DNA of 64,000 nt from Acidobacteriaceae bacterium (GCA_003151335.1 PLXE01000112.1:2981-66980); one strand, 5' to 3'. Positions 5,685 to 61,404 are shown, counted from the first letter of the stretch. Numbers and translations are program-made. The notes: generated from the sequence alone by a model not told the origin.

Positions 5685-5829
5685 CTTGGTGGGTGTGGCG
5701 CGTCCAAGCTGCGCGGAAGTCGAAGGTTTCCCGGCATCTCGGCGATCCGTCAATGGACCGGCTTGGATGGGCACGCGGCTCGAGAATCGCGGCTCCGGCC
5801 ATGCGGGAGTCATGGACGGGCTGCCAAAA

Positions 5830-6252
5830 TCACTTGGTTGGATCCGCCGGTTTAGCGGGCTCGGAAGGTGGCGCGGCTTTCAGCTTGGCCAGCGCTTCAT
5901 CCACACGCTTCTTAAAGTCACCCTGGTCGTTGTGCGAAAGCCCACTATACATCGACACAACACTCATCTCGCACGTGGTACCAGTCGGCAACAAGCTGAC
6001 GCGGTTTTTGCCCTGGTTGACCGCTCCGATAACGGACATATGAATGGAGTGTTTTACATTGTAGTCCGCAGTCATTTTGTCCTCGTCACTCTGCACGTCT
6101 TTGTAGTTGTCCGGATTGCCAAGGGCAACTTTGACCGCGCCCCACACTTCACTGCAAGGAACGGGATAGGTAGTCTTGTAAGTCTTGTTGCCGGCACCGA
6201 ACGCCGGCACAGCAACAGCAAGCGACATTAAGGCAACCACTGCAAATTTCAT
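5830..6252 (-). CDS. hypothetical small secreted protein
   Basis: ATG at 6252 is preceded by GGAGAA. There is a signal peptide, MKFAVVALMSLAVAVPAFGA. No family recognised. The longer ORF start at 6354 lacks a signal peptide. Confidence 0.5.
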   Translation of the reverse strand: MKFAVVALMSLAVAVPAFGAGNKTYKTTYPVPCSEVWGAVKVALGNPDNYKDVQSDEDKMTADYNVKHSIHMSVIGAVNQGKNRVSLLPTGTTCEMSVVSMYSGLSHNDQGDFKKRVDEALAKLKAAPPSEPAKPADPTK

Positions 6253-6473
6253 CTTGTTCTCCTTGGCCGTACGGCCGGAATCGAATCGACCTCTGGGACG
6301 GGCGACGGGGAGAGGGCAACGCAAAGGTTTGTTGCTCGCTGCTTGGCGCGCCACGCTGGATGAGAAAAAGGCCTGGGATCCCCCTCCGGGTCACGAAGAG
6401 ATTCTCATTCTATCGATTGGCGTTTGTCAGTGACAGGTAACGCACCAGGAAGTGATAGCCGGGAATACGCGGC

Positions 6474-7966: not shown

Positions 7967-8137
7967 GCGGGTGCCCACCCAAGCTTTTTCTGCTTGGGGT
8001 AGTTCTGTAACTTTCACGGACAACGAATGCCGCGAGCACGCCGCCCCGATTTACTCATCCTCGCCCGCCGCGGCGGGCACACCCCGACATGAAACCAAAA
8101 TCCCCATCCAAGCAAAACCAGCTTGGACGGGGCACCC
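7967..8137. repeat. bipartite hairpin element, copy C
   Basis: Module 2 at 7967-8011 is gcgggtgcccacccaagctttttctgcttggggtagttctgtaac. The box ccccgatttactcatcctcg lies at 8045-8064. Module 1 at 8097-8137 is aaaatccccatccaagcaaaaccagcttggacggggcaccc. Confidence 0.75.
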
Positions 8138-9858: not shown

Positions 9859-11445
9859 ATGCGGCGCGGTTCGCGTTCTCTCACCACAGTTGTTGCAAGA
9901 TTGGCAATTGTCGCGGCGCTGCTCGCGCCGGCGACGACGATCGCGGCCAATCGCCCTGCGGTTTCCCAATCCCATTCCGACGAGGCCCGCGCCGAGCGCT
10001 ACTTCCAAAGCATTCGCAAGGACCCCAACCTGCTGCTGGCCTTTCTGCGCGAGATGCCCAAGGGAGGCGATCTCCACATTCACCTCACCGGATCGGTTTA
10101 CGCGGAATCGTACATCCTGTGGGCGTCGGAGGAAGGTGAGTGCGTTGATCCCCATGTCTTGTCCTTCAGCGCGCCCCCGTGCAACGCGCCTGCGGTGCCG
10201 GTTGCGAACGCCTTCGCCGATACCCAGCTGTACGGCAACATCGTTGACGCCATCTCGATGCGCAACTGGCAGTACTCGGGCCAGTCCGGACACGACCACT
10301 TCTTCGCGGTGTTCGGCAGGTACGTTCAGGCGACGAACGGCACCACCGACAAAGCGCTGGCGGAGACCGCCGCCCGCGCCGCTGCCCAGCACGAGATCTA
10401 TCAGGAGCTGATGCTTACGCCGACCGGCAAAGACCTGGAGACACTGGCCGAGTCGGTTGGTTGGGACGAGGATTTTGCCCGGCTGCAACAAAAGCTGCTG
10501 GCCGGCGGGTTGCCGCAGATTCTGGCTGCTGCCAGCCAAGAACTCAATGCGGCAGAGGCGTCGCGCGACAAACTCCTCCACTGCGGCGTTCCCGCCGCCG
10601 ATCCGGGATGCCAGGTTGTACAGCGCTACATAGCCCAGGTGTCACGGGGCAAGCCGAAAGAGGTGGTCTTCGCCCAGATTCTCACCGGCTTTCTGCTGGC
10701 GGGGGCCGACCCCAAGCTGGTTGCGCCCAACCCGCACGTGGTCGGCCTGAACCTGGTGATGGCGGAAGACTGGTATGTCCCCATGCGGGATTTTGCGCTG
10801 CACATGCGCATGCTCAATTACTTTCACGAACGCTATCCGCAGGTGCACATCGCGCTGCACGCGGGCGAACTGGTCGAGCGGCTTGTCCCTCCCAAGGACT
10901 TGCAGTTTCATGTGCGCGATTCGGTCGAGATGGGACACGCCGAACGCATCGGACATGGGGTTGACGTGATGAACGAAACTCGCCCCTTCGAGCTTTTGCG
11001 GGAGATGGCCGACCGCAATGTGATGGTGGAAATCTGCCTCACCAGCAACGACGTCATCCTCGGCGTGCGCGGGCCGCAGCATCCGCTAAGCGAGTACCTA
11101 CGCGCCGGTGTGCCGGTGGCGCTGGCCACCGATGACGAGGGCGTCTCCCGCTCGGACATAACCCACGAATATCTGAAGGGCGCACAGGAACAGAATCTCA
11201 GCTATCTGCAGTTGAAGAAAATGGCGCGCACCAGCCTGGAACACGCCTTCATCGGCGGCGCCAGCCTGTGGCGTGACGGGAAGGCGTTTAGCGTGGTCAA
11301 GGAATGCGAAAGCGAGAAGGCCGGAGCGACGCAACCGTCGGCGATATGTCAGAAGTTTCTCGATGGCAGCGAAAAGGCGCGGCTGCAATGGAAGTTGGAA
11401 ACCGAGTTCCGCCAGTTTGAAGCGAACACGTGGACGGTGCCGTGA
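9859..11445 (+). CDS. adenosine deaminase family protein, exported
   Basis: ATG at 9859 follows GGAG. There is a signal-like N-terminus. Motifs GGDLHIHLTGSVY, ALHAGE, HGVDV and ATDDEGVSRSD are typical of the adenosine/AMP deaminase metal site. Confidence 0.8.
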   Translation: MRRGSRSLTTVVARLAIVAALLAPATTIAANRPAVSQSHSDEARAERYFQSIRKDPNLLLAFLREMPKGGDLHIHLTGSVYAESYILWASEEGECVDPHVLSFSAPPCNAPAVPVANAFADTQLYGNIVDAISMRNWQYSGQSGHDHFFAVFGRYVQATNGTTDKALAETAARAAAQHEIYQELMLTPTGKDLETLAESVGWDEDFARLQQKLLAGGLPQILAAASQELNAAEASRDKLLHCGVPAADPGCQVVQRYIAQVSRGKPKEVVFAQILTGFLLAGADPKLVAPNPHVVGLNLVMAEDWYVPMRDFALHMRMLNYFHERYPQVHIALHAGELVERLVPPKDLQFHVRDSVEMGHAERIGHGVDVMNETRPFELLREMADRNVMVEICLTSNDVILGVRGPQHPLSEYLRAGVPVALATDDEGVSRSDITHEYLKGAQEQNLSYLQLKKMARTSLEHAFIGGASLWRDGKAFSVVKECESEKAGATQPSAICQKFLDGSEKARLQWKLETEFRQFEANTWTVP

Positions 11446-11457
11446 GATCGATTGGGT

Positions 11458-11619
11458 TCACCACAGAGACACGGAGGCACAGAGAAGATTTATTACCACG
11501 GACGACACGGAGATTGATTTTTCGTTCTCTTTAGTAATTCTTGGTTTTTCCCCGCGACCTCGGTGCTCTCCGTGGTGACAAGGTCCTTCTTCTCTGTGTC
11601 TCTGCGCCTCTGTGGTTGC
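11458..11619. repeat. inverted-repeat element (CCACAGAGRCACGGAG family), copy 1
   Basis: The left arm is ttcaccacagagacacggaggcacagagaag (11458-11488). The right arm is cttctctgtgtctctgcgcctctgtggttgc (11589-11619). The arms are complementary at 24/31 positions by hand. There is an inner sub-repeat, ttaccacggacgacacggagat. It lies between the deaminase stop and the permease start. Confidence 0.7.
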
Positions 11620-11671
11620 CGTCTCATGCCGCAAACCGCAAATTCCATGTAGACTTTGAAAAACTCCTCGC

Positions 11672-13159
11672 ATGGGTCAGGAAACAACTTTGGGTAACAG
11701 TTTGCCAGCCGCCGCATCGAAAACCTCCTATCCCCCTGTCGCGAACTCAGGCAGCGCTGCCGTTGCTGCGAAGCGTACTCAATTACGCCGGGTATTTCGC
11801 GTGCGGGACGGCGTCGCGCTGATCATCTCCAACGTGGTTGGCGTCGGCATCTTCACCACGCCCGCCATCATCGCCAAGCTGGTGCCCGAACCCCGCGCCA
11901 TGCTTGCCCTTTGGATTGCCGGTGGATGCCTCGCCCTGGCTGGCGCAATGTCGTATGCGCAATTAGGACGGAGATGGCCGTCAGCCGGAGGAGAATACAT
12001 TTACCTCTCCAAGGCCTACGGCCCAACCGCCGGCTTTCTTTCCGGCTGGACATCGCTGATAGCCGGCTTCTCCGGGGCCGTGGCCGCCAGCGCCGTGGGG
12101 CTGGTCATTTATCTTGGCCAGTATTTTCCCAGGCTGGCGTCGGACCACGCATTGCTTTCCATCAACTTCTATGTGGGAGCATTCACGTTTTCACCGCGCT
12201 CGCTCACCGCGGCTGCCATTATCGTCGTGTTCGCCGTCTTACACGCCTGTCACTTGGGAGCCGGCAAGCTGACGCAAAATGCGCTGGCCCTCCTGATCTT
12301 GGCGATCGTCCTTCTCTTTTGCCTGTTTGGATTTGCCGTGGGGACGGGTTCATGGTCGCACTTCCAGTCGGCCCACATACCTATCCGTCCGATGAACTGG
12401 CTGCTCGCTCTGATTCCCATCATGTTCACTTACAGCGGCTGGAATGCAGCCTCGTATATCTCGGAGGAGTTGCACGACACGCGGCGCATGATCGGCCCCG
12501 CGCTGCTGATCGGGACTTCCATTATCGTCGGTCTCTATTTCCTTCTGAACACGCTGTACTTGTATGCGATTCCGCCCGCCGCCATGCAAGATGCCGTAAA
12601 TGTCGGCGACGTGACAGCGCACGCGTTGTTCGGAGTGGGGAGAAACTTCGTGACTCCGGCGCTGATCGTCGCTCTGCTGGGCGCCGTCAGCGCCATGACT
12701 ATCGCGGGACCGCGCGTTTACTTCGCCATGGCCCGCGACGGGGCTTTTGTGCCAGGCTTCGACCGCACCAGCCCACGATTCGGCACGCCTGCGCTGGCCA
12801 TTGCGCTGCAAGCTTTGTGGTGCGTGGTGCTGGTGATGGCTGGCGGGTTCTATCAGCTTCTGATGTATACCGGATTCACGATTCTGTTGTCTTCGGGCGC
12901 GGCGGTGGCGGGACTGTTCGTAGTCCAGCGACGCGAATTGCGATCCAACCCCAAGCTCTGGCTCAAGATGTTGGCGCCTGCAATTTTCGTCATCGCCTGC
13001 GCCGCCATCGTTGTCAACGCGGTGGTGGGAGCTCCCAAGACCGCGCTGGTTGGTTGTCTGCTGATCGCGGCTGGACTTCCGGTTTTCTTCTGGTCAAGGC
13101 GGCGAAAAGCTGCGGAACCGGCCGCCGGACCCGAAACGACCGTTGTCGAAGCAGGGTAA
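11672..13159 (+). CDS. APC-family amino acid permease
   Basis: 495 aa, polytopic and hydrophobic throughout. The N-terminal motif LIISNVVGVGIFTTPAII is typical of APC transporters. Confidence 0.8.
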   Translation: MGQETTLGNSLPAAASKTSYPPVANSGSAAVAAKRTQLRRVFRVRDGVALIISNVVGVGIFTTPAIIAKLVPEPRAMLALWIAGGCLALAGAMSYAQLGRRWPSAGGEYIYLSKAYGPTAGFLSGWTSLIAGFSGAVAASAVGLVIYLGQYFPRLASDHALLSINFYVGAFTFSPRSLTAAAIIVVFAVLHACHLGAGKLTQNALALLILAIVLLFCLFGFAVGTGSWSHFQSAHIPIRPMNWLLALIPIMFTYSGWNAASYISEELHDTRRMIGPALLIGTSIIVGLYFLLNTLYLYAIPPAAMQDAVNVGDVTAHALFGVGRNFVTPALIVALLGAVSAMTIAGPRVYFAMARDGAFVPGFDRTSPRFGTPALAIALQALWCVVLVMAGGFYQLLMYTGFTILLSSGAAVAGLFVVQRRELRSNPKLWLKMLAPAIFVIACAAIVVNAVVGAPKTALVGCLLIAAGLPVFFWSRRRKAAEPAAGPETTVVEAG

Positions 13160-13184
13160 AGAGGCTGCTGAAAAAATCGGGAAA

Positions 13185-13226
13185 GCAGATCCCTCGCGGG
13201 TTTTAAACCCGCTCGTGATGACAAAA
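13185..13226. repeat. REP-like element, reverse orientation
   Basis: Sequence is gcagatccctcgcgggttttaaacccgctcgtgatgacaaaa. It is nearly the reverse complement of 47073-47115. A hairpin ggcgcacctgaaggtgcgcc follows it. Confidence 0.65.
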
Positions 13227-13278
13227 ACTAAAGCGCTTAACGGCGCACCTGAAGGTGCGCCCCTGCTTTTGCGAGTCT

Positions 13279-15147
13279 TCACTCCACCGTAACCGACTTC
13301 GCCAAATTGCGCGGTTGATCCACGTCGCAGCCGCGGCGCACGGCAATGTGATACGCCAGCAACTGGCAGGGAACCACCTCCAGAATTGGCGCGAGCAGTT
13401 CGGGCGCATCGGGAACGTAGAGGACGTGGTCGGCGGCTTCGCGAATCTCCTCGTCGCCGTCGGTGGCGATGGCGATCACCGTTCCAGAGCGCGCTTTCAC
13501 TTCCTTCAGGTTCGACAGCGTCTTCTCGTAGCGCAGCACCGAGCCGGGATCGGTCTTGTCGTGCGTAGCCAGAATCACCACGGGAAGGTCTTCGTCGATC
13601 AGCGCGTTCGGCCCGTGCTTCATCTCGCCCGCGGGATAGCCCTCGGCGTGAATGTAGGAGATTTCCTTCAACTTCAATGCGCCTTCCAGCGCGATGGGGT
13701 AGTGAATGCCGCGTCCTAGAAACAGGAAGTCGTGGGCGCGGTGGTATTCCTTGGCAAGATCTTCGGTTTCCTCGTCGCGCGTCAGCAGAGTCTCCAGCTT
13801 GCCGGGCATGAGAGTGAGATCGGTAAGGAGCTGCTTGGAGTGGTCGAGATCGAGTTTTCCACGCACCAGGCCGAGGTGGACCGCGAACAGGAACAGTGCG
13901 GTCAGTTGCGCAGTGAAAGCCTTCGTCGAGGCCACGCCAATCTCCGGCCCGGCATGGGTGTAGATGGTGCCGTTGGCTTCGCGCGCGATCATGGAGCCCA
14001 CCACGTTGCAGATGCCTACCGTCTTCGAGCCTTTGGCGCGCGACTCGCGCATGGCCGCGATGGTGTCAGCGGTCTCGCCTGACTGCGTAATCAAGATGGT
14101 CAGATCACCGGGTCCGGTCAGCGGATCGCGATAGCGGAACTCGCTGGAATAATCCACCTCCACCGAAAGCTTGGCCAGCCGCTCAATCATGAACTTGCCC
14201 GCCAGTCCAGCGTGCCAGCTGGTGCCGCAAGCCGCGATATACACCTTCTCCAATTTGCGGAAATCTTCGTCGGTGATGTCCATCTCGTCGAGGAACACCT
14301 TGCCGGAGTCGAGCGAGACGCGGCCCAGCGTGGTATCGCGCACCGCTCGCGGCTGCTCGTAGATTTCCTTCAGCATGAAATGCTTGAAGCCGCCCTTCTC
14401 CGCCATAATGGGGTCCCAGGTGATGTGCTGCACCTGGCGGGTGATGGGCTGGCCCTCGAAGTCGGTGAGTTGCACGCCCGAGGACGTGATGACAGCAAGG
14501 TCGCCGTCGGCGAGAAAGAACAGGTCGCGAGTGTGGTACAGGATGGCCGGCACATCGCTGGCGACGAAGTATTCATCTTTGCCCAGACCGATGACTGCGG
14601 GCGGGCCATTGCGAGCGGCCACAATTTTGTTGGGCTCGTCGGCCGAGATGACGGCGATGGCGAACACGCCGGTCAGCAGCTTCACCGTCTTGCGCACGGC
14701 TTCTTCCAGCGGAACCTTGCGATCCGCCTCGGAAAGGTTTTTCTCGATGAGGTGGGCGATCACTTCGGTGTCGGTCTCGGTGCGAAATTTGTGGCCTTCG
14801 TCGATCAGCTTCTTCTTCAGGGCGACGTAGTTCTCCACGATGCCGTTGTGCACAACCACGACCTTGCCGGTGCAATCGCGGTGGGGATGCGCGTTCTCTT
14901 CGGTGGGACGGCCATGGGTGGCCCAGCGGGTATGGCCAATGCCGTAGGTGCCGTCGAGCGGCTTGAGGCGGATGACCTCCTCCAGGTTGCGCAGCTTGCC
15001 CTCGGCGCGGCGCACCTGCAAACCATCGCCGTTGCCGCCCACGGCAATACCGGCCGAGTCATAGCCGCGATATTCGAGGCGGCGCAAGCCGTCAATGATG
15101 ACCGGCACAACCCGCTTTTTCCCGACGTAGCCAACGATGCCGCACAT
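13279..15147 (-). CDS. glmS: glutamine--fructose-6-phosphate aminotransferase
   Basis: 622 aa. It begins MCGIVGY (Ntn amidotransferase Cys), has two SIS domains and ends VTVE. Confidence 0.97.
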
Positions 15148-16784: not shown

Positions 16785-16866
16785 GCCGGCTGAAGCCGGC
16801 TCGGGATTTCAGCCTTAACCCAGGACTTACGTCCTGGGCTAACATTATGCCGCCCGCTGCGCGGGC
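16785..16866. repeat. cluster of three short stem-loops
   Basis: The hairpins are gccggctgaagccggc (16785-16800), cccaggacttacgtcctggg (16819-16838) and gcccgctgcgcgggc (16852-16866). They are the same style as the 9481-9700 array. Confidence 0.55.
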
Positions 16867-16947
16867 TAGTTTCGTGCCTGTATCGCTGCCCGTCAGCATG
16901 AGGCAAGACGCTTGGGTTAACGCTAAACGCAAGGGCCTAGCGTGAAA

Positions 16948-38845: not shown

Positions 38846-38932
38846 GCCGAAGTGGCGGAATTGGCAGACGCGCATGGTTCAGGTCCATGTACCCGCAAGG
38901 GTGTGGGGGTTCGAGTCCCTTCTTCGGCACCA
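38846..38932 (+). tRNA. tRNA-Leu (anticodon CAG)
   Basis: The sequence folds by hand as a class II tRNA: acceptor GCCGAAG/CTTCGGC, anticodon stem CATGG/CCATG with loop TTCAGGT, a long variable arm, T-arm GGGGG TTCGAGT CCCTT, discriminator A and an encoded CCA. Confidence 0.9.
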
Positions 38933-49455: not shown

Positions 49456-49800
49456 CACGAATCCTGATTGGCCGATTGGCAGGAATACGAAAAGCGTAAC
49501 ACAGGCGGGCCGGGCGGACCGTGCGAAGTCCGAGCGCAAACCATTGCCTCAGGTCCTCGACCCTACCAGACACAGAATGCTACCCGTTTATTTCCCACCC
49601 CGACCTGGCCCGGCTGTCACGGCGAACGGTGATTTGAAACACTGCGCCACCTCAGGACTGGGTGGTACATATTCATTGAAGTTAGTGGCGTGCCTCGCCA
49701 GGAGCCATTCCTGGCAACGGCGCACTCGGGAAGGGGCCGCGGAGCGCGTCGCCATGGGCAGAATGCGATAAGCGCAGTTCTATCGGGAAGGAGGTTCTCG

Positions 49801-50598
49801 ATGAACAGGAAGATATTTGCACTGGTGGTGCTTCTAGTTTTCTGCGGTCAAGCCCTATGCCAAACCGGCGTCAAGAAGAAAAGGCCGCTTCCCTACGAAT
49901 ACGGCCGGGTCGTTATCGACAACTACTCCGATAAGGCGGACCTGGCGCCCGTTGTCTTCGAGCATTGGATCCACCGTTCCAAGTTCACCTGCAGGGTCTG
50001 TCACGTGGACGTCGGTTTTGCGATGAAGGCCGGAGCTACGGGGATCACGGCCGCAGACAACGAGCGAGGCTATTACTGCGGCAGCTGTCATAACGGGAAG
50101 AGGATGGTTGACGGGAAAACCGTCTTCCAATCCTGCTCCAAGAAGGTGACCGACGAGGACGCGCAGAGGTGCCAGCGTTGCCACTCCTATGGACAGAAGG
50201 TCGCGTCCGATTACGACTTCTTCCGATTCAGTGAACCGCTTCCCAAAGAACGCTTCGGGAACGGGCTGGATTGGGAAAAATCAGAGGAGTTGGGACTCAT
50301 CAAGCCGGCAAAGTTCCTCGAGGGCGTCTCCATACAAAGGAACTCGCTCGTCGTGCAGAAGGATTTCGCGCTCAACCCGAAGGTTGAGGGAATGCCTAAC
50401 ATCATCTTCTCCCACAAGAAACATACTGTCTGGAATGGATGCGAGCTTTGTCACCCAGAGATATTCATGGGCGTGAAAAGGGGAACCGTGCGGTACTCGA
50501 TGGTGGACATATCCCAAGGGAAGTCCTGTGGCGTGTGCCATACCACGGTGGCGTTTCCTTTGACGGATTGCCAGCGCTGCCATTCCAAACCGGTATAA
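49801..50598 (+). CDS. periplasmic hexaheme c-type cytochrome (two c7-type triheme halves)
   Basis: It has a signal peptide, MNRKIFALVVLLVFCGQALC. There are six CXXCH motifs (CRVCH, CGSCH, CQRCH, CELCH, CGVCH, CQRCH). F-x-H-x-x-H precedes the first heme of each half, as in cytochrome c7. Confidence 0.85.
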   Translation: MNRKIFALVVLLVFCGQALCQTGVKKKRPLPYEYGRVVIDNYSDKADLAPVVFEHWIHRSKFTCRVCHVDVGFAMKAGATGITAADNERGYYCGSCHNGKRMVDGKTVFQSCSKKVTDEDAQRCQRCHSYGQKVASDYDFFRFSEPLPKERFGNGLDWEKSEELGLIKPAKFLEGVSIQRNSLVVQKDFALNPKVEGMPNIIFSHKKHTVWNGCELCHPEIFMGVKRGTVRYSMVDISQGKSCGVCHTTVAFPLTDCQRCHSKPV

Positions 50599-50620: not shown

Positions 50621-50959
50621 ATGTTCAAGGCGAAGATTGTCGTGGTACTGGTGATGTTCATGGGGCTCGTCGGCCTGTGTGGCCTGCGGGAGATCGGCGG
50701 GTCCCCTCCGTCTGCTTCGCAAGCGGACCCAGCGCGGGAGTCTTGGCGGAAGGAGTTCGATGACGTTTGCTCAAAGACCCAGGACGCCATGACCTTCTCG
50801 CAGGAGGAACTCAGGGACCTGATTCGCAGGTGCGACGCCCTGCTGCCGCAGATTGAAAAGCTCGACGAATCGCGGAAAAAGGTCTACCTGGGACGATTAC
50901 AGAAGTGTCGAGGCCTTTATGCCTACGTACTTGATGCGAAAAAGAACGAGAAGAAATGA
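50621..50959 (+). CDS. hypothetical membrane-anchored helical protein
   Basis: 112 aa. GGAGG lies upstream. An N-terminal hydrophobic helix is followed by a charged helical region with three Cys. It overlaps the next gene by 26 nt. Confidence 0.5.
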   Translation: MFKAKIVVVLVMFMGLVGLCGLREIGGSPPSASQADPARESWRKEFDDVCSKTQDAMTFSQEELRDLIRRCDALLPQIEKLDESRKKVYLGRLQKCRGLYAYVLDAKKNEKK

Positions 50960-51755
50960 GCGCGGGTTTCTCCTGCTGGTGCTGGCCTGCGGAATCTTGC
51001 TTCTGGGAAATATCGCGTTAGCCCAAATGTATTTGCCCGAACCTCCACCGGAACCGTCGGAGTATGGCAAGGTGATTCTTGACAACCACTCCAAGGCTGG
51101 CCCCGGCGCCGTGGTATTTGATCATTGGCTTCACCGTTCCAAATTCACCTGCCGGCTCTGCCATGTAGATATCGGCTTTGCCATGCAGGCGAACGCCACC
51201 GGCATCAATGCGAGCACGAACCGCGAGGGTTTCCATTGCGGCGCCTGCCATGATGGTAAGAGGGTGTTGGAGGGAAAAACCATCTTCGCGGCGTGCTCCG
51301 ATGCCGCCAACGACAAGCAGTGTGACCGCTGCCATTCCCTGGGCAAGAAGGGCGTAAGAAAATATGAGTACAACAAATTTACTGCGAAATTCCCGAAGAG
51401 CTTTTACGGTGTGAATTGGGAAGAGGCGGAGAGATCTGGCGTCATCCAACCCATCGATTTTGTAGAGGGTTTATCCGTCAAAACGCCGAAGATGCAGAAC
51501 AGGAAAGATTTTTCTATCGCAGCAGGTTACTCGTGGGTCCACCCCATTGGCTTCTCTCACGAGAAGCATTCTATCTGGAACGGCTGTGAACTCTGCCACC
51601 CCGAAATATTCCCGGCTGGCAACCGAGGCACGATCCGCCACACCATGTATTCTAATGTCGAAGGCCAATACTGCGGTGCCTGCCATGGAAAGGTGGCTTT
51701 CCCGCTCAACAACTGCCAAAGATGTCACCCAAAAGGCCCCGTCTGGGCTCCATGA
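50934..51755 (+). CDS. periplasmic hexaheme c-type cytochrome, paralogue of 49801..50598
   Basis: It has a signal peptide. The six CXXCH motifs (CRLCH, CGACH, CDRCH, CELCH, CGACH, CQRCH) are collinear with the paralogue. NGCELCHPEIF is identical in both. Confidence 0.85.
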   Translation: MRKRTRRNERGFLLLVLACGILLLGNIALAQMYLPEPPPEPSEYGKVILDNHSKAGPGAVVFDHWLHRSKFTCRLCHVDIGFAMQANATGINASTNREGFHCGACHDGKRVLEGKTIFAACSDAANDKQCDRCHSLGKKGVRKYEYNKFTAKFPKSFYGVNWEEAERSGVIQPIDFVEGLSVKTPKMQNRKDFSIAAGYSWVHPIGFSHEKHSIWNGCELCHPEIFPAGNRGTIRHTMYSNVEGQYCGACHGKVAFPLNNCQRCHPKGPVWAP

Positions 51756-51811: not shown

Positions 51812-53599
51812 CTACTTGATCGTCAGGGTGATGATCTGCGATCCCGTCACCACGTAGTCCACCGGAGTGGACGCTTCATCCACGGCGGACTCGCCCACGA
51901 CAATCATGTCCTGCGTACCGCGCATGCCATCCATCACGTTCATTACCGACAGCGGCAACGTCGGCATCACCTTGTCGTCCACCATGGCTTGCGGGCTGGC
52001 CTCCAGCAGGGAGACGTAAAGCTCAGAGTTGGTGTGCTCTTTGTTGAGCAGTGCAATGGTGGAGCCCAGATCGAGCCGCCGGCTCATGGCTCCCGACACG
52101 CGGCGCATCTTATCGAGAGTGTCGCCGTCGCTCACCAGAATGCGCAGTGTTCCCCTGGGCGTGGAGGTAGGAATCTTCACTGGGATCTGGCGAAGAATGC
52201 TCTCTCCGCGATACGGCCGCAGCAGCGTCTCGATGGTTATCTCATCGCCGGGACGAGCTTCGGTGATGTCCGTGCGGGCGGTTTCCAGCCGCGCCGAACG
52301 GCGGTCAGGAACGAGATCGAAGTTCAATTCCACGCCTTCGATCTTTGGAGTTGCGTAAGGATTCTCGAAGATGCGGCTGAAGTGCTCGCCGATGGAAAGC
52401 GCGATGCTATAAGCCGTCGGCGTAGAGCCATCCAGCGGAGCGTACATGTTCTGCACACGCAACTTGGGATAGCCGAGAACGTCGATGTCGCCCCGCAAAC
52501 GATAGGTGGTATCTTCGCCGTACTCGTTCATGCCCTGGATGGCATTGAACACTGTGGCCATCATTGCGGCCGGCGTGACCTTGGCATTGTTCAGCACTTC
52601 GTAATGAAACTGCTTGGGATGGGAGACCCCGTTGAAGGTGAGCGTCACGGGAATCATGTGCGGCTCGCGATCGAAGCGCCCCATGAGGCCCGCACGGCGG
52701 TCCTGCATGAACGCGCCGACCGGCTCCGTCGCGTTAACAATCTTGAAGGAGTTCTGCGCCGAAGGCAGAGTGGCCAGCACCGTCGCTTTGGTCATCGGCA
52801 TGTTAACGCTGCCCGACTGTAACAACGGATGGCCGCATGCCAGCAGGTGGGTGTCGTCAAGATACGTGACGGTGCAAGTGCCGGCGATGTTCATATCGCC
52901 GCGTACCAGGATCGCGCTGACCGCCGAGCCTGGAACCAGCGGTTCCGGTTGCTTGTCGTTGCTGACCGAACCCGCCCCCATGACCGGGACAACACCGACC
53001 GAGGCAAAATCCTTGGAGAAGAGCCGCAGCGTGTTTTCGCTGAATCCGGTGAAGACCAGCGGAGTCTCGATGGGCTTCAGCAGGTTTGCGTAGCCTGGGT
53101 CCTGCTGGTTCGGAGATGTGGCCAAGCCGGGTCCAGAAGTTCGCGCTGTCGCCTGCCTGTCTCCGGCAAGCGCTCGCGCCTCTTCCGGCGCTGGCGTCTT
53201 GTCCATGGCATCGATTTCCAGCATGGAGCCGGCCGGAGTGATACCGGCAATCGGCTCTTTGGAAAACTCGCCAATGCGATAAGCGATGGCGCCGATGAGT
53301 TTGCCGTCAATGTAAACCGGGCTGCCGCTCATGCCCGCGACCACGCCGAAGTACTCAACTTTCTTGCCATGCAGCCGCGCCAGGATGACGTCGGATTTCG
53401 GACCGGCCATATTGCGCAGCACCCCGAGGATCTCGACCTCCATCGGTTCCGGAGTGACGCCTTCGAAGACGGTATAGGCCACGCCATGCATGCCGGTCTT
53501 GACCTGGTCCTCAGGCATGATTTGGACTTTTGGCTTTTCGGCCGCGAAACCGGCCAGAGATATGAAGCTGAGCAGTGCGAACGAGACGGCGTTGCGCAA
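51812..53599 (-). CDS. SpoIVB-type peptidase S55 domain protein, exported
   Basis: GVVAGMSGSPVYIDGKLIGAIAY resembles the SpoIVB serine motif. The likely start is TTG 53599 after GAGGA (or GTG 53611), giving the signal peptide RNAVSFALLSFISLAGFAAE. The ORF is open to 53821. Confidence 0.6.
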   Translation of the reverse strand: MRNAVSFALLSFISLAGFAAEKPKVQIMPEDQVKTGMHGVAYTVFEGVTPEPMEVEILGVLRNMAGPKSDVILARLHGKKVEYFGVVAGMSGSPVYIDGKLIGAIAYRIGEFSKEPIAGITPAGSMLEIDAMDKTPAPEEARALAGDRQATARTSGPGLATSPNQQDPGYANLLKPIETPLVFTGFSENTLRLFSKDFASVGVVPVMGAGSVSNDKQPEPLVPGSAVSAILVRGDMNIAGTCTVTYLDDTHLLACGHPLLQSGSVNMPMTKATVLATLPSAQNSFKIVNATEPVGAFMQDRRAGLMGRFDREPHMIPVTLTFNGVSHPKQFHYEVLNNAKVTPAAMMATVFNAIQGMNEYGEDTTYRLRGDIDVLGYPKLRVQNMYAPLDGSTPTAYSIALSIGEHFSRIFENPYATPKIEGVELNFDLVPDRRSARLETARTDITEARPGDEITIETLLRPYRGESILRQIPVKIPTSTPRGTLRILVSDGDTLDKMRRVSGAMSRRLDLGSTIALLNKEHTNSELYVSLLEASPQAMVDDKVMPTLPLSVMNVMDGMRGTQDMIVVGESAVDEASTPVDYVVTGSQIITLTIK

Positions 53600-53866
53600 A
53601 ATGTTCCTCACCTTACTTAAGCCGCGGTGCGGCTTTGCCACGAAGATCGGCCATTCCCAAAGCCCCCTAGGGGGAGCCACGACGATTTGACTGCGGCAGT
53701 GCCCCAACGTCAGTTCGCGAGCACTTTTCTGCGCGCCGCAGAGAGTCAAAGATGCTGAATTTGCATTTATACTAGCAGACAGTCCGTCCCACGAGGCACC
53801 CTGATGTGTTCTGAGAAACACCTTACTTGTTCCGGTATTTCACCCGTTACGCTTAGCTCCGTGAAA

Positions 53867-55143: not shown

Positions 55144-57219
55144 ATGAGATCCGCCCAGAAATTTCTTAGTCCCGCCCTTAAACTTGTTGGAATTATCGTC
55201 CTCGGCCTTCTCGCCGCCGACGCGCAGGATGCGCCGAAACCAGAGATTCACGGCATTGATGTCGCCAACATGGACCGCTCGGTCAAGCCGGGCGATAACT
55301 TCCATCTGTACTGCAACGGCGACTGGATCAAGCGCACCGAGATTCCCCCCGACCGCTCGCGGCTAAGCGTCTTTGCAACCCTTGCCGACGTGAGCGACAC
55401 GCGCACCGCCGCCCTGGTTGAAGAGGCGGCCAAGAATGGCGGGCCTGCCGGCTCTAGCGCGCGCAAAATCGCCGTTCTCTACAGCTCTTACATGGACGAG
55501 GGCGTCATCGAGGCCAAAGGTCTCGCGCCGCTCCATCCTCATCTCAAAGCCATCGCTGCCATTAGAAACAAGAAAGAGTTGGCGGCCGTGCTAGGGGAAA
55601 CGCTGCGCGCTGATGTTGACGCGCTGAATAACACCAACTTCCATACTCCGCATCTGTTTGGATTGTGGGTCGCCCCCGGCTTCAACGATTCCGATCATTA
55701 CGCCGCTTACCTCCTGCAAGGCGGCCTGCAACTGCCGGACCGCGAGTATTACCTTTCCAACAGCGAGCAGATGCGTGACATCCGCACCAAGTATCAGGCG
55801 CACGTCTCAGCCATGCTCAAGCTGGCGGGATTCACGGATACGGACGCCCGGGCCGAGCGCATTGTCGCGTTGGAGCACGCCATCGCGGAAAAACATCTCA
55901 CCCTCGCGGAAAATGATGACATCCACCAGGCCAACAACACCTGGAAGCGGGCAGACTTCGTGGCCAAAGCTCCGGGCCTCGACTGGGCCGAATACTTTCG
56001 CGGCGCCGGCCTCAGCAAGCAAGCCAGCTTCATCGTTTGGCAGCCTACCGCCTTTGCCGGCGAGTCTGCTCTGGTGGCCTCCACTCCGCTGGACACGTGG
56101 AAGGATTGGCTCGCCTATCACATGATCGAAGAGTACGGCGATGTACTACCGAAAGCCTTGGCTGACGAGCGTTTCGCCTTCTTTGGTAATGTGCTGCAAG
56201 GATCGCCGGAACAGCGTCCGCGCTGGCAGCGCGGTGTGGTGATCGTCAATCGGTACCTCGGCGACGACGTCGGGAAGATCTATGCGTAGCGCTACTTCTC
56301 TCCCGAAGCCAAGGCCCAGGCGCAGGCCATGGTGGCCAACATCATTGCCGCTTTCCGCAAGCGAATTGAGGCGCTTCCGTGGATGGCGGCATCCACCAAA
56401 GCCGAAGCTCAAGCCAAGCTGAACACTCTGTACGTCGGCGTCGGCTACCCGGAGACCTGGATCGACTACTCAGCCTACGAGGTGAGGCCGGATGACATCT
56501 TCGGCAACGTCTGGCGCGGTAATGTTTTTAAGTATCACCACGAGGTCGCGCGCCTGGGCGCAGCGATTGACCGCAAGGAATGGTCCATGACGCCGCAGAC
56601 GGTCAACGCGGTAAATCTGCCGCTGCAGAACGCTTTGAACTTCCCAGCTGCAATTCTGCAACCTCCATTCTTTGACCCGCAGGCACCCGCGGCGGTCAAC
56701 TATGGCGCCATCGGCTCGGTCATCGGCCACGAAATCAGCCATACCTTCGATTCGGAGGGGGCCGCGTTCGACTCCAAGGGTCGGGTGCGCAACTGGTGGA
56801 CGCCCGCCGATCTCGCCCATTTTGAAGCGGCCACCGCCAAACTCGCCGCGCAGTATGACACCTATAAGCCGTTTCCCGATCTTTCCCTCAATGGCAAGCA
56901 GACGCTGGCTGAGAACATCGCCGACGTCGCCGGCATCTCGGCTTCGTATGACGGCTACCGCGCGTCACTCGCAGGCAAGGAAGCGCCGGCGCAAGATGGT
57001 TTCTCCGGCGACCAGCAATTCTTCATCGCCTTCGGTCAGGACTATAGGGCAAAGTCGCGGGACGCTGCGCTGCGCCAGCAGGTGGCGGTTGACTCGCACT
57101 CGCCCGCCGAGTTCCGGGCAGATACGGTTCGCAATATCGACGCCTGGTACGCGGCTTTCGATGTCAAGGCGGGAGAAACGCTGTACCTGGCTCCGTCGGA
57201 ACGCGTGCGGATTTGGTAA
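55144..57219 (+). pseudogene. M13-family metallopeptidase (PepO/neprilysin-like) interrupted by a single in-frame TAG
   Basis: The N-terminal M13 region (55144-56286) and the C-terminal catalytic region (HEISHTFD, ENIADVAG, ends RVRIW) are in the same frame. They are separated only by TAG at 56287-56289 (GKIYA*RYFSPEAKAQ). Confidence 0.8.
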
Positions 57220-57581
57220 TGGATGAAGGACGGTCAGAGTTTGCATGACAACTCGTTCTGAGTTGGCGCGTTGGGGTGATTGCGCAAAATTCAGCCCCGC
57301 AGGGGCGAATAATGCCAGTCCAGGGCGTGACCGGGGCGGTGAACTCCTGGGCAAAATGGAAAGGATTAACGATTTTTTTTGGACATCACAGTTCCCACGC
57401 ATCCTCTAGGGGTCTTAAATCCTCTAAAAGTCTTATCAGGAAGCGGGTTGAGGATTACGTATATGGGATTGCTTGTATAATGTATGGCGTTTTCGATTCA
57501 AGAAGGAAATCTCGGGTAACGCTGTGGGTATTGGCTGGTCAGCCTGTTGACCATCCTGCGAAAAGTTTGTCAGGAGCAAGG

Positions 57582-58523
57582 ATGACTCTCGTGCGCCGTA
57601 GACCGATCCCGTTTTTGCCTGTCTTCCTCATGGCTTGGTGTTTGACCGCCACCCTTCCAGCGCAGGAACACCCCAGCAACCCGAGTCCCACGGCATCGGC
57701 GGCGCTCCCAGGCTCAACCGGCGGCCAGTATGCCGAGACCGACATTTGCCAGACGTGCCACCAGGAAGTCTGGGACAAGCACTTTGCCAACACTCCGCAC
57801 GCGGCGTTACTCAAAGGCAACCAGCACGGATGCCAGGCTTGTCACGGTCCGGCGCAAGCCCATGTTGACGGCGGCGGCGATCCCACCAAGATCGTTCGCT
57901 TTGAGAAGCTGAGTCCGGCGGAGACAGCAGCGATCTGTACGAAGTGCCACCAGTCGACCCCGGAAACGCAGAATTTCTCCAAGTCCGAACACCTGGCGAA
58001 TGGCGTCAGTTGCACCAGCTGTCACAGTCCGCACCGATCCAAGGACGTCAACTTCCTGCTGGTGAAACCGCAGACTGAGCTGTGCTACGGATGCCACGCC
58101 GCGCAGAAGGCCGAATTTGCCCGGCCCTATCGCCACCGCGTCGATGTCGGACTCATCCAATGCAGCGACTGCCACAATCCTCACGGCACCGAGACCGGTC
58201 ACCAGGTGCGAGCTGCCGCCGGTCAATTCAAGGTTTGCACCAAATGCCACACTGACACCATGGGGCCGTTCGTCTTCGAACATGCCCCGGTGAAGACTGA
58301 CGAAAGCTGCCTGCAATGTCATATGCCACACGGTTCTACGAATCCGCGTTTGCTGCAGGTCAACAACGTCAACTTTCTTTGCCTTCGCTGCCATACGGCG
58401 AATATGAATGGAGCAGCGCCAGGCGCGCCCTCGTTCCACAACCAGGCCACCAAGTATCAGGCGTGCACGATGTGCCACACGCAAATCCATGGTTCCAACT
58501 TCGATCCCTTCTTCTTCCGGTAG
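57582..58523 (+). CDS. MtrA/DmsE/MtoA-family periplasmic decaheme c-type cytochrome
   Basis: ATG at 57582 follows AGGAG, with a signal peptide, MTLVRRRPIPFLPVFLMAWCLTATLPA. There are ten CXXCH motifs in 313 aa (CQTCH, CQACH, CTKCH, CTSCH, CYGCH, CSDCH, CTKCH, CLQCH, CLRCH, CTMCH). Confidence 0.88.
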   Translation: MTLVRRRPIPFLPVFLMAWCLTATLPAQEHPSNPSPTASAALPGSTGGQYAETDICQTCHQEVWDKHFANTPHAALLKGNQHGCQACHGPAQAHVDGGGDPTKIVRFEKLSPAETAAICTKCHQSTPETQNFSKSEHLANGVSCTSCHSPHRSKDVNFLLVKPQTELCYGCHAAQKAEFARPYRHRVDVGLIQCSDCHNPHGTETGHQVRAAAGQFKVCTKCHTDTMGPFVFEHAPVKTDESCLQCHMPHGSTNPRLLQVNNVNFLCLRCHTANMNGAAPGAPSFHNQATKYQACTMCHTQIHGSNFDPFFFR

Positions 58524-58535
58524 TGGGGGCATGAA

Positions 58536-60890
58536 ATGGGTTGTCAAAGAAGTTTCGGCGCTTGTTCTTTTGGATTGGCCCTGCTGGCGGTCTGCCTGTC
58601 TTTGATCTGCAACACGCTTGGGCAGAGCTCGGGCCAGACGGCAGCCTCCGCGTCTGCCGATTCGAGCTCGGGCGCAGGAGAGGGTAAAAAGATCGGTGAC
58701 TTTCAGGTAACGCAGTCCATCGAGCTGGGCGGCCGCATCTCCGAGGTCAATGGCAGCCAGCCGATGTACGACACCCTGGTCAATGACCAGAGCGGTGCTC
58801 GCATCCTGGAACAGTCGCTCACCATGCAGTCTCTGACACACGAGGACATTTTCGACACCCTGACGCTCAACAGCTTTGGATGGGGCGGCGATCCCCAGCA
58901 GGCGGCGCGCATGCGCGTGTCGAAATACCGCTGGTACACCTTCAGCGGCAGTTATCAGCACATGCAGAACTATTTTGATTACGACTTGTTTGCCAACCCG
59001 TTGAATCCGCCCACCGGTACGCCGTTCATTCCGATCCTGAACTCACCACACGGCTACTACAACCGGCAAAACCTTTACAACTTCGATCTTGTCGTGCTGC
59101 CGATGCACCGCTTATCGTTTCGGGCGGGCTACAACCGGAACCGCTTCGCGGGGCCTGCGTTCAGCAGCATCCATGAAGGTACGGAGGCACTGCTAAACGA
59201 GAATACTGACAATACGCTCAACGGATATCGCTTCGGCGCCGACTTCCGCGCCACCAAGAAGACCACCCTCAGTTACACGCAACTGCTTCAGTACTATGAT
59301 GGCGGGACGACTTATGGCCTGAACCCGTTCAATTCCTGGCCGCTTCCCAATGGCACGCCCGTCAGCTTGGGACTCTCCTGGTTCAACAGCGGAAGTCCCT
59401 GCGCGAAGCCGCTCAACAACGGGGTCGCCAATCCAACGTGCAATGGTTTTCTCGATTACAGCCTGGACCAGCACATAAACACATTTGTCCCAACCGAACA
59501 GTTCAACCTGACCTCCTCTTCGCTCAAATGGCTGGACTTCAATGGCCAGTTCCAGTACAGCCATGCGCAAATGAACACCCCGTTCACGGAAATTTTCCGT
59601 GGTTTAAGCAGCCGCACGGCGAGTCTCGGCTCCAACACAACAGGCAGTAGATCCGACGCCAAGTGGAATTCTTCTTCCGCAGACATTTCGGCTACGATTC
59701 ACGTCACCGATAAGCTCCGGCTGGTGGAAACCTTCCGCTTCCGCAATTTCAGTGTCGCCGGCGATTATTTTGATCTTCAGGCCAACTACTTCAACGCTGC
59801 CTCCTTCGGCTCCGCCTCGCTGCTCAATCCGGTGGCGATGTTTCCTGGCACGAATCTCTTCCACAATTCCAGTTCTCCTGCCGACATCATCAATGAGATG
59901 ACGATCAACATGATCGGCCAGAATACGAAGCAGAATGATTTCCAGGTGCAGTACGATGTATCGCGCTGGTTTGGAGTGCGCGCCGGGTTCGTGTGGGCCA
60001 ATTCCACCATTCAGCCTGGGAACACCTATCAAGCCGCTTTGGGAGACATTTATTACCCCAATCTACCCAATCGCGGCAATTGTGTCGGCTTACCGTTGAA
60101 CCCGGATGGCAGTTGCACGTTCAGCGGAGTCATTGCGCCGTTTGGCAGCCCGACCACCGAGACCAATAATTACTCCGGCGTGGTCGGGGCTTGGTTCCGG
60201 AAGGGAAGCACCCTGCATGCCAACCTCAATGCGAAATATGGCAGGGCTGACAATTGGATCTATCGCATCGATCCCCTGAGTTCTCTGAATGTTTCCGGAA
60301 ACGTGTCGTATTCGCCCCGCCCTTGGATGACGGTGGGCGCCAATCTTAATTTCCAGCAGGCCAGGAACAACACCAGCGACATCCGGTTCAGCCAGCACAA
60401 CTACTCGACGGTGCTCAACGCCATGATCAATCCCAACAAATACTGGGGACTGGACATGGCGTACAACTTCGATGCCATTCAGCAGAACATGTTCCTTTGC
60501 TTTGCTGGAACGGTGGCCCCGCCGGACACCACCACCTGTGCCGAAGATCCCACGCTGCAGCAGACGTACGGTTTCTATCGCACCCGTACTCAGTTCGGTT
60601 ACTTCGCCTTGACGCTCACGCCCATCGAGCGCGTCACCATGCGCCTGGGATACAACATCGTCGACAACCAGGGCAACACGACCTCGCTCAATACGCTGCT
60701 GCCGTTGGGTCCCCTTTCCTCCATTTATCAGTCACCTCTTGCCGCAGTGGATGTCCTTGTCCACAAGGACGTCACGTTGAAAGCCGCCTGGAACTATTAT
60801 CAGTACGGCGAAGGATCGTTCGTAGGACCGACCGCCCCACGCTATTTCCATGCCAACAATACGACGCTGGCTCTGAGGTACGCCTTTTGA
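58536..60890 (+). CDS. MtrB/PioB-like large outer-membrane beta-barrel protein
   Basis: 784 aa. It starts 13 nt after the decaheme gene's stop and has a signal peptide. It has no heme motifs. It is rich in Y/N/G/S/T alternating segments and has a terminal ...TLALRYAF aromatic end typical of OM barrels. The assignment rests on context plus composition. Confidence 0.6.
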   Translation: MGCQRSFGACSFGLALLAVCLSLICNTLGQSSGQTAASASADSSSGAGEGKKIGDFQVTQSIELGGRISEVNGSQPMYDTLVNDQSGARILEQSLTMQSLTHEDIFDTLTLNSFGWGGDPQQAARMRVSKYRWYTFSGSYQHMQNYFDYDLFANPLNPPTGTPFIPILNSPHGYYNRQNLYNFDLVVLPMHRLSFRAGYNRNRFAGPAFSSIHEGTEALLNENTDNTLNGYRFGADFRATKKTTLSYTQLLQYYDGGTTYGLNPFNSWPLPNGTPVSLGLSWFNSGSPCAKPLNNGVANPTCNGFLDYSLDQHINTFVPTEQFNLTSSSLKWLDFNGQFQYSHAQMNTPFTEIFRGLSSRTASLGSNTTGSRSDAKWNSSSADISATIHVTDKLRLVETFRFRNFSVAGDYFDLQANYFNAASFGSASLLNPVAMFPGTNLFHNSSSPADIINEMTINMIGQNTKQNDFQVQYDVSRWFGVRAGFVWANSTIQPGNTYQAALGDIYYPNLPNRGNCVGLPLNPDGSCTFSGVIAPFGSPTTETNNYSGVVGAWFRKGSTLHANLNAKYGRADNWIYRIDPLSSLNVSGNVSYSPRPWMTVGANLNFQQARNNTSDIRFSQHNYSTVLNAMINPNKYWGLDMAYNFDAIQQNMFLCFAGTVAPPDTTTCAEDPTLQQTYGFYRTRTQFGYFALTLTPIERVTMRLGYNIVDNQGNTTSLNTLLPLGPLSSIYQSPLAAVDVLVHKDVTLKAAWNYYQYGEGSFVGPTAPRYFHANNTTLALRYAF

Positions 60891-61101: not shown

Positions 61102-61404
61102 ATGGCCAAATCCGAAAGACTTAGGCCCATTCATCCCGGCGAAATTCTGCGCGAAGATTTCATGAGGCCGCTGCGCATCAGCATGAACCGCCTCGCGCTT
61201 GACCTGCGTGTCCCCGTGACACGCATAGGTGAGATTGTGCATGAGCGGCGCGGCATCACTCCCGATACGGCGCTGCGACTGGGACGCTATTTCAACACCA
61301 GCGCGCGCTTCTGGATGAACGCCCAATCCAGCTACGACCTGGAAGTGGCGCAAGACGAACTGCGGCGCACCATCGAGCGCGACGTGCGTCCTCTGGTGGC
61401 ATAA
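61102..61404 (+). CDS. higA: HigA-family antitoxin (XRE HTH), no HigB partner
   Basis: 100 aa. IHPGEILREDFMRPLRISMNRLALDLRVPVTRIGEIVHERRGITPDTALRLGRYFNTSARFWMNAQSSYDL is the HigA/VapI pattern. AGGAGG lies upstream. Confidence 0.8.
   Translation: MAKSERLRPIHPGEILREDFMRPLRISMNRLALDLRVPVTRIGEIVHERRGITPDTALRLGRYFNTSARFWMNAQSSYDLEVAQDELRRTIERDVRPLVA

Follow-up and report, generated by a model that had tools for sequence, protein, structure and literature searches.

Two adjacent genes in a 64-kb stretch of DNA from an Acidobacteriaceae bacterium (PLXE01000112.1; the whole stretch is referred to below as the window, and positions are counted from its first letter) had been proposed from the sequence, in what we call the original prediction, to encode an outer-membrane electron conduit composed of a decaheme cytochrome and a porin. 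Gene A (57582..58523, + strand) extends from an ATG at 57582 to a stop codon at 58521-58523 and encodes an exported decaheme c-type cytochrome of 313 residues. Gene B (58536..60890, + strand) starts with an ATG at 58536, ends at 60890 and encodes an exported protein of 784 residues, which belongs to an unannotated family and is predicted to form a 26-strand outer-membrane beta-barrel. The 12-nt spacer between the two genes (58524..58535, + strand; TGGGGGCATGAA) carries a G-rich ribosome-binding stretch and contains GGGGG, and the first base of gene B is the 13th after the gene A stop codon, as originally counted. This distance implies co-transcription and possibly coupled translation, and in related loci the genes are likewise closely spaced or overlapping. 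An AGGAG is located 7-11 nt 5' of the gene A start codon.

The gene A protein contains exactly ten CXXCH motifs (residues 56, 84, 119, 144, 168, 194, 219, 243, 267 and 295) and no CX3-4CH or CXXCK variants, and 14 of its 24 histidines are found outside of these motifs, which would be sufficient for bis-His ligation. Its N-terminus (MTLVRRRPIPFLPVFLMAWCLTATLPAQE) is basic and hydrophobic and resembles a Sec signal peptide. The presence of ten such motifs within 313 residues cannot be due to chance, and as only three open reading frames (ORFs) with at least two CXXCH motifs were detected in the whole 64-kb window, a compositional accident is excluded. A longer, GTG-started version of gene A is mechanically possible (start at 57276, 415 residues), but orthologous decaheme ORFs mostly comprise 309-350 residues even if counted from the first possible start codon.

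Among the curated models, TIGR03508 for the DmsE-family decahemes gave the highest score for the gene A protein (246.5 bits vs a cutoff of 192.2, covering model positions 3-257 of 258), followed by the GSU2203/OmcK-family model with 214 bits, which is under its cutoff of 325, while NrfB, NrfH and other multiheme models reached about 50 bits or lower. The protein also matched Pfam Paired_CXXCH_1 (E 4.9e-35), and its top match among PDB sequences was 6R2Q_A, the MtrA of the Shewanella baltica Mtr complex (E 5e-37), to which residues 47-307 align with all ten heme motifs in register. By sequence, the gene A protein is thereby assigned to the DmsE/MtrA/MtoA/PioA decaheme family rather than to the nitrite or sulfite reductase-type multihemes, as had been anticipated; it is an ordinary member of this family and is correctly annotated by standard pipelines.

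Remote homology of the gene B barrel to MtrB

The gene B protein exhibits a hydrophobic N-terminal signal and no internal hydrophobic helix. In its mature form 13.3% of the residues are aromatic and 39.8% are G/N/S/T/Q, and its C-terminus reads LALRYAF, with RYAF constituting the beta-signal. No CXXCH motif is present, and the only cysteines of the mature protein are found at positions 289, 302, 516, 527, 655 and 668. The features that the original prediction had listed for both genes, an exported 313-residue protein with ten CXXCH motifs and an exported, heme-free 784-residue protein with barrel-like composition and a terminal RYAF, were thus all recovered at these positions. The close homologs of the gene B protein number more than 1,000, all of which are annotated as "hypothetical protein" and contain no Pfam domains, and an exhaustive HMMER search yielded a family of 1,056 clusters at 50% identity.

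A relationship between this family and MtrB was detectable only at the level of profile-profile and fold comparisons, which revealed homology where searches with hidden Markov models (HMMs) failed. For these comparisons, 42 barrel sequences with 28-69% identity were assembled into family alignment A1, and 23 PF11854-annotated Shewanella MtrB sequences into alignment A2. The S. baltica MtrB was taken from PDB by means of a bait sequence, which matched 6R2Q_B over its full length; after this step only database MtrB sequences were used, and the PDB-derived MtrB served to collect the PF11854-annotated proteins. Alignment of A1 against A2 with hhalign resulted in a nearly full-length match with a probability of 94.7% (E 5.7e-8) over 528 columns, spanning residues 115-783 of the query and 111-695 of the template.

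A confident AlphaFold2 model of the gene B protein was built on A1, with a mean predicted local distance difference test score of 85.4 and a predicted template-modeling score of 0.78. From the DSSP string of the model, 26 long strands can be read, joined by 13 long loops and 12 short turns. The modeled loops of 10-41 residues are all located at odd-to-even strand junctions and the even-to-odd turns all comprise 2-8 residues, which is the pattern expected for an outer-membrane topology with 13 external loops. The three conserved cysteine pairs (289/302, 516/527 and 655/668) are placed in predicted external loops of the model, which suggests the presence of loop disulfides. When the model was searched with Foldseek against 350,542 PDB chains, the first match was MtrB (6R2Q_B, E 5.2e-15) with template-modeling (TM) scores of 0.58 (query-normalized) and 0.69 (target-normalized), followed by 22-strand TonB-dependent transporters with TM scores of 0.35-0.45 and E-values down to 7e-12. 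MtrB was thus the best match in both the structural and the profile-profile comparison, which speaks against the unrelated porin or usher that the original prediction had named as a way in which it could fail. As judged by these profiles and the model, the gene B protein is remotely homologous to MtrB and is predicted to fold like it, but is placed outside of the curated MtrB/PioB family. These comparisons provide evidence that the unannotated barrel is an MtrB homolog, beyond being a structural look-alike.

Direct membership of the gene B protein in the MtrB/PioB family was considered and rejected, as searches of Pfam and NCBIfam as well as phmmer and hmmsearch runs against PDB sequences were all negative, and it is therefore not filed under PF11854 or TIGR03509. 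At E-values up to 1 the protein matched no Pfam model, hence not PF11854, and PF11854 was touched by only 3 of the 42 A1 members (best E 0.0056), with none of the 42 matching TIGR03509. Its sole curated match was to NF041027, the GSU2204 family (E 2.5e-7, residues 580-656), with 29.9 bits far below the cutoff of 350; this score and the missing CXXCH place it outside of that family. Since the same weak match is shared by 35 of the 42 A1 members, the GSU2204 family is the nearest curated relative of this barrel family and not the same family. The profile search that the original prediction had suggested for both proteins therefore came out differently for the two, with the decaheme passing TIGR03508 and the barrel matching neither PF11854 nor TIGR03509.

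Several of these results weigh against an MtrAB-type conduit, as do some features of the gene wiring that are described further below. The barrel fails every curated MtrB/PioB model, including TIGR03509 at E-values up to 1, its sequence found no match in PDB, and the A1 family profile did not retrieve MtrB from the PDB sequences. Moreover, the gene B protein has no N-terminal CXXC, a motif that all sequences of the Shewanella MtrB alignment contain (C42/C45) and that may be specific to Shewanella-type MtrB. The failure of the curated models, the lack of a Pfam domain and the TonB-dependent transporters among the fold matches would also fit an arrangement without any conduit, in which the decaheme would act in soluble form in the periplasm, as a carrier or reductase, next to an unrelated large porin or transporter from the same operon. 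We regard this as extremely unlikely, considering the distance between the TM scores for MtrB and those of at most 0.45 for the transporters, the extent of the hhalign match, and the absence of a plug domain in the model and of a TonB-dependent-receptor match in Pfam. Furthermore, the strict pairing with a decaheme gene is kept down to 28% barrel identity, which would not be expected of an incidental neighbor.

Pairing with the decaheme, candidate inner-membrane partners and probable direction of flow

The conservation of the gene pair was analyzed in 80 related loci from species-representative genomes, with flanks of 8 kb. Those with barrels 87-97% identical to that of the window originate from palsa, bog and SPRUCE peat metagenome-assembled genomes (MAGs) labeled Acidobacteriaceae or Candidatus Korobacteraceae, and the source organism of the window accordingly belongs to the Korobacteraceae of peat, bog and palsa. 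In 78 of the 80 loci the decaheme gene is located directly upstream of the barrel gene on the same strand. One of the two apparently unpaired loci is a 1.9-kb contig and the other an artifact of the choice of high-scoring segment pair (decaheme end at 7982, barrel start at 8001), and the pair is present in 79 of 79 evaluable loci. A sample of five distant relatives with barrel identities of 28-31% showed the same arrangement: each contains a paired-CXXCH cytochrome of 298-333 residues immediately upstream, which carries ten CXXCH motifs in all four relatives for which DNA was at hand and passes TIGR03508 at 234-260 bits in the three that were scanned. Throughout the family, decaheme and barrel genes thus occur as an obligate unit. 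This pairing provides the strongest case for genes A and B working together and extends the synteny that the original prediction had asked about well beyond close relatives.

With the TIGR03508 match of the decaheme, the fold and profile match of the barrel to MtrB and this obligate pairing, the proposed outer-membrane conduit is well supported. We consider it very probable that genes A and B encode the two components of a porin-cytochrome conduit like MtrAB, MtoAB and PioAB, with outward electron flow as the favored direction. Both proteins would be exported by Sec, and the ten hemes would be attached covalently to the decaheme in the periplasm in a Ccm-dependent manner. The decaheme would then thread into the lumen of the predicted 26-strand barrel, forming a lipid-insulated heme chain that spans the outer membrane.

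As stated in the original prediction, no MtrC/OmcA-like gene is adjacent to the pair in the window, so that the three-component MtrCAB layout with a clustered MtrC/OmcA gene does not apply, and no MtrC-sized decaheme was found in the 80 related loci. The other multi-CXXCH ORFs of the window encode two paralogous exported six-heme cytochromes (49690-50598 and 50853-51755, + strand), located 6-8 kb upstream of the pair and each consisting of two c7-type triheme domains (TIGR04257, PF14522). One of them exhibited a negligible match to TIGR03507 (E 8.4e-4, 17.9 bits vs a cutoff of 209). Since no MtrC is encoded next to the pair, the reaction at the cell surface would fall to the terminal heme of the decaheme, with Fe in soluble or chelated form, the humic or quinone groups in peat organic matter, or small shuttles as its partners. 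The periplasmic end may exchange electrons with soluble cytochromes, for which the two six-heme proteins are candidates, and these in turn with inner-membrane quinol-oxidizing cytochromes. Flow in the outward direction would amount to respiration onto extracellular acceptors in anoxic peat. Orthologs of the six-heme proteins were detected in two of the 80 loci (L002 and L008), with the 8-kb flank possibly being too short to reach them elsewhere, and a 112-residue ORF (50621-50959) is found between the two six-heme genes.

Candidate inner-membrane partners were identified next to the pair in a number of related loci. These comprise a CbcL-like gene (about 660 residues, signal peptide, 11 CXXCH motifs and a C-terminal FdnI/cytochrome-b561 membrane domain) and an ImcH-like gene (about 512 residues, three N-terminal transmembrane helices, a NapC/NirT-like region, six CXXCH motifs and one CX3CH motif). 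Of the 80 loci, 22 contain the ImcH-like gene at a distance of up to 8 kb from the pair, 20 the CbcL-like gene and 19 both genes. The flanking cytochrome genes occur in clades with barrel identities of at most 76% and either follow the pair in the same orientation or precede it in divergent orientation, as exemplified by L041 (CbcL-like at 10956-12929 and ImcH-like at 13068-14606); other flanked loci include L022, L025, L026, L033, L034, L037, L040, L046, L056, L058, L060-L062, L067, L070 and L077. The 11-heme and six-heme neighbors were also considered as the missing MtrC-like surface cytochromes, an assignment that was rejected on the basis of their inner-membrane architectures (FdnI/b561, and three transmembrane helices with NapC/NirT, respectively). 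Their architectures match those published for Geobacter CbcL and ImcH, and quinol oxidation is the only process in which a role of ImcH has been indicated to date (PMC6295460). Because of this linkage and the role of ImcH in quinol oxidation, outward flow is favored for the flanked loci and, by homology, for the window pair; given a conduit, we rate it as moderately probable. The co-occurrence, seen in about a quarter of the related loci, further suggests a hybrid pathway that combines inner-membrane components of the Geobacter type with outer-membrane components of the Shewanella type.

The wiring observed in the relatives applies less directly to the window itself. No inner-membrane cytochrome gene was found in the window, where the sole tblastn match to ImcH-like or CbcL-like proteins is the heme-rich region of gene A, and neither ImcH-like, CbcL-like nor NapC/NirT genes are near the pair in its own clade (barrel identity of at least 77%), so that the argument from linkage is carried over to the window from clades that are paralogous or more distant. 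In addition, loci L085 and L086 exhibit the order decaheme, barrel, monoheme cytochrome c and NapC/NirT cytochrome, and MtrAB-type conduits are reversible (Baker et al. 2022, PMC8805035). With reversible conduits and Mto-like gene orders in the family, the direction of flow can be assigned only conditionally, and the caution expressed on this point in the original prediction was appropriate.

The same conduit could also serve electron uptake as in MtoAB and PioAB, where extracellular Fe(II) or reduced humics would be oxidized at the cell surface and electrons passed inward to periplasmic carriers, with either the quinone pool or a terminal oxidase as their destination. This use, which we regard as unlikely, shares with MtoAB and PioAB the two-gene layout without MtrC (PMC6344600, PMC7005843), the order found in L085 and L086 resembles mtoA-mtoB-mtoD-cymA, and Acidobacteriia are reported to contain PioA/MtoA homologs (PMC10654088). 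However, the inner-membrane partners linked to the pair in Korobacteraceae relatives are ImcH-like and CbcL-like, and even the NapC/NirT-type partner in L085 is an ImcH-like protein of 474 residues. Neither HiPIP, cupredoxin or Cyc2 genes nor carbon-fixation genes accompany the pair in the examined region of the window. Moreover, MtoA and PioA form no function-specific clade (PMC8805035), and architecture alone is thus no sign of uptake. The original prediction had placed the pair closer to MtoAB/PioAB than to MtrCAB, which holds for the two-gene layout without MtrC; its lean towards the Fe(II)-oxidizing type is not supported by the gene context, as the partners, where linked in relatives, are mostly ImcH-like and CbcL-like.

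Another possible use of the conduit relates to the DmsE-family model to which gene A belongs. DmsEF is an established MtrAB paralog that serves an outer-surface dimethyl sulfoxide reductase (PMC8805035), and the pair could likewise feed a non-heme extracellular terminal reductase encoded elsewhere, such as a molybdoenzyme. This seems very unlikely to us, considering that no dmsAB-like or other oxidoreductase gene is present beside the pair in the window, among the conserved neighbors screened for in the 80 loci, or in the five distant loci.

The distant family member L084 (2096-4780) encodes an 894-residue barrel with a monoheme class-I cytochrome c domain (PF13442) following the C-terminal beta-signal, and the position of this fused domain at the periplasmic end of the barrel argues for docking of periplasmic cytochromes. 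A monoheme cytochrome of this kind is encoded by the separate gene that directly follows the barrel gene in L085 and L086.

Further variation was noted among the related loci. Two copies of the pair, on different contigs or at distant sites, are present in several MAGs (L002/L009, L004/L005, L031/L063, L034/L038, L035/L036 and L064/L065). The decaheme ORF is split in L005 (2+6 CXXCH) and L064 (2+8 CXXCH), which suggests frameshifts or assembly errors. In L070, a gene for a 689-residue protein with 19 CXXCH motifs and a C-terminal transmembrane segment (4206-6275, - strand) is located between the CbcL-like and decaheme genes, and the decaheme ORF of this locus contains only nine CXXCH motifs and a divergent C-terminus. 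Downstream of the barrel gene, L081 (7986-9092) as well as L082 and L083, which form a distant clade, encode an exported 368-residue protein that matches no family and contains low-complexity regions rich in Gln/Pro and in Tyr/Gly/Pro; the L081-type locus is surrounded by genes for a sigma-54 activator and PAS histidine kinases.

Relation to known conduits

The closest structurally characterized system is the MtrAB core of Shewanella MtrCAB (6R2Q), which shares the ten aligned CXXCH motifs and the order of cytochrome followed by barrel. The barrel described here exceeds MtrB by about 90 residues, shows no more than about 11-15% identity to it, has no N-terminal CXXC and falls under the PF11854/TIGR03509 thresholds, and unlike in MtrCAB no gene for an MtrC/OmcA surface decaheme is adjacent. 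In architecture, as likened by gene layout, MtoAB of Sideroxydans and Gallionella and PioAB of Rhodopseudomonas palustris are closest, as they consist of decaheme and barrel without a surface cytochrome. However, equivalents of mtoD, cymA/mtoC and pioC are missing in the window, and an Mto-like order is found only in L085 and L086. Among curated sequences, the gene A and gene B proteins come closest to OmcK (GSU2203) and GSU2204, respectively, an adjacent pair in Geobacter sulfurreducens, both of which are up-regulated with iron-oxide minerals (PMC4070692) and the latter of which is described as an MtrB/PioB-family barrel (PMC13188914). The scores against these families are far under the cutoffs (214 vs 325 and 29.9 vs 350, respectively), and the GSU2204 family contains CXXCH or selenocysteine, unlike gene B, which has none.

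The Geobacter porin-cytochrome complexes (Pcc; OmaB/OmbB/OmcB) follow the same logic of trans-outer-membrane electron transfer by a periplasmic multiheme and a porin, and their upstream partners ImcH and CbcL are of the Geobacter type that is also found in the loci of the relatives. Pcc complexes are not homologous to Mtr (PMC6344600), and they combine an octaheme periplasmic with an outer-membrane dodecaheme cytochrome, whereas the pair described here consists of a DmsE-family decaheme and an MtrB-like barrel with no third cytochrome gene adjoining it.

The statement that this physiology is poorly characterized in Acidobacteriota was overstated in the original prediction. Acidobacterial MtrA-type decahemes were found in Arctic peat (PMC3669403, 2013), candidate mtrA/mtrB genes in 13 acidobacterial genomes including "Ca. 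Koribacter versatilis" (PMC5900883, 2018) and 27 PioA/MtoA homologs in Acidobacteriia (PMC10654088, 2023), in addition to 19 ImcH homologs in Acidobacteria (PMC6295460). Baker et al. 2022 (PMC8805035) described an MtrCAB "Group 5" in Acidobacteriia of the Bryobacterales type and found no gene for an inner-membrane quinone oxidoreductase close to the acidobacterial clusters. Fiorito et al. (May 2026; bioRxiv 10.64898/2026.05.27.727921) report transcribed porin-multiheme clusters in peat Acidobacteriota and Verrucomicrobiota, with comparable acidobacterial and verrucomicrobial conduits being transcribed through deep anoxic peat; their search was anchored on extracellular multihemes.

In their study, EET2 (Bryobacterales) and EET3 (Verrucomicrobiota) share with the window pair a DmsE-family multiheme and a divergent MtrB-like porin with a TM score of about 0.68 to 6R2Q_B, as well as the peat habitat and an origin from the same or a neighboring phylum. 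The EET2 porin contains no conserved domains, and that of EET3 has only a weak NF041027 match and no heme motif, as is the case for gene B. EET2 and Group 5 differ by an MtrC-like surface decaheme plus a periplasmic tetraheme and by their occurrence in Bryobacterales, EET3 by its octaheme, and EET1 (Terriglobales) in that its porin is accompanied by an NHL propeller and an OmcE-like cytochrome with 13 hemes. The possibility that EET1 or EET2 represents the same module was rejected on the different architectures given in the text and supplement, and they are set apart here by described architecture. Neither the bare two-gene Korobacteraceae module nor its ImcH/CbcL linkage is described in the accessible parts of Fiorito et al. 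or Baker et al. The conduit type as such is already recognized in Acidobacteriota and in peat; new are the MtrB homology of the divergent barrel, the size of its family, its pairing and the ImcH/CbcL linkage.

We tentatively put forward a broader proposal, about which considerable doubt is in order: the barrel may represent a very large and wholly unannotated clade of MtrB-like porins that is obligately paired with DmsE decahemes and modularly re-wired, with ImcH-like and CbcL-like partners, with monoheme cytochrome c and NapC/NirT or by barrel-cytochrome fusion. If this is correct, surveys based on HMMs and operon rules would have systematically under-counted the capacity for extracellular electron transfer in dominant peat Acidobacteriota, and the bare pair, situated among housekeeping genes, could then allow peat organic matter to be respired constitutively.

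In acidic peat, Terriglobales such as the Korobacteraceae belong to the dominant bacteria, and the surplus of CO2 over CH4 production in peat has been ascribed to respiration with iron and organic matter as acceptors. If confirmed, a conduit in peat Korobacteraceae would provide a molecular handle on this respiration. As the barrel is annotated as hypothetical and escapes MtrB HMMs, pair-based screens would see a lone decaheme and call no conduit. FeGenie, for example, uses TIGR03509 for MtrB (PMC7005843), and judging by the HMM employed, surveys of this kind would probably miss these conduits.

Genomic neighborhood of the pair in the window

The window pair is embedded in a housekeeping neighborhood that is conserved within its own ortholog clade, with genes for an S55-like peptidase, an acidobacterial VWA protein (TIGR03436) and an M13 peptidase upstream and rpsO downstream. 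The non-coding region preceding gene A (57220..57581, + strand) presumably contains the promoter, and most of it is 79-92% conserved with close orthologs, over a stretch of about 460 nt that includes the first 99 nt of gene A. Consensus scans detected no sigma-70-type site in 57220..57581 and no sigma-54 pattern upstream of the pair, and promoter and terminator scans near the operon revealed nothing over shuffled expectation.

The protein annotated as S55-like (51812-53821, - strand) comprises 669 residues with a weak SpoIVB/S55 match (PF05580, E 1.4e-8), and its gene is kept together with the VWA and M13 genes in the ortholog clade. The M13-family metallopeptidase gene (55144-57219, + strand) is interrupted by an in-frame TAG at 56287-56289, a position that is occupied by CAG (Gln) in six orthologous loci (L001-L004, L006 and L008); this reflects either a C-to-T nonsense mutation that resulted in a pseudogene or a sequencing error in the source genome.

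Between the barrel gene and rpsO, the window contains a gene for a HigA-family antitoxin (61102-61404, + strand; TIGR02607, 105.9 bits). It has no counterpart in the 80 related loci, in several of which rpsO follows about 140 nt after the barrel gene, and no HigB-like ORF is evident alongside this solitary HigA, which looks like a strain-specific insertion.

Elsewhere in the window, an Acido-Lenti-1 small RNA (Rfam RF01687) was detected at 16819-16867 (+ strand) with 37.9 bits, barely over the gathering score of 37. This RNA and the TIGR03436 VWA-domain protein are consistent with an acidobacterial origin of the window, and the assignment to an Acidobacteriota-like genome in the original prediction was sound. 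A tRNA-Leu(CAG) gene is located at 38846-38932 (+ strand).

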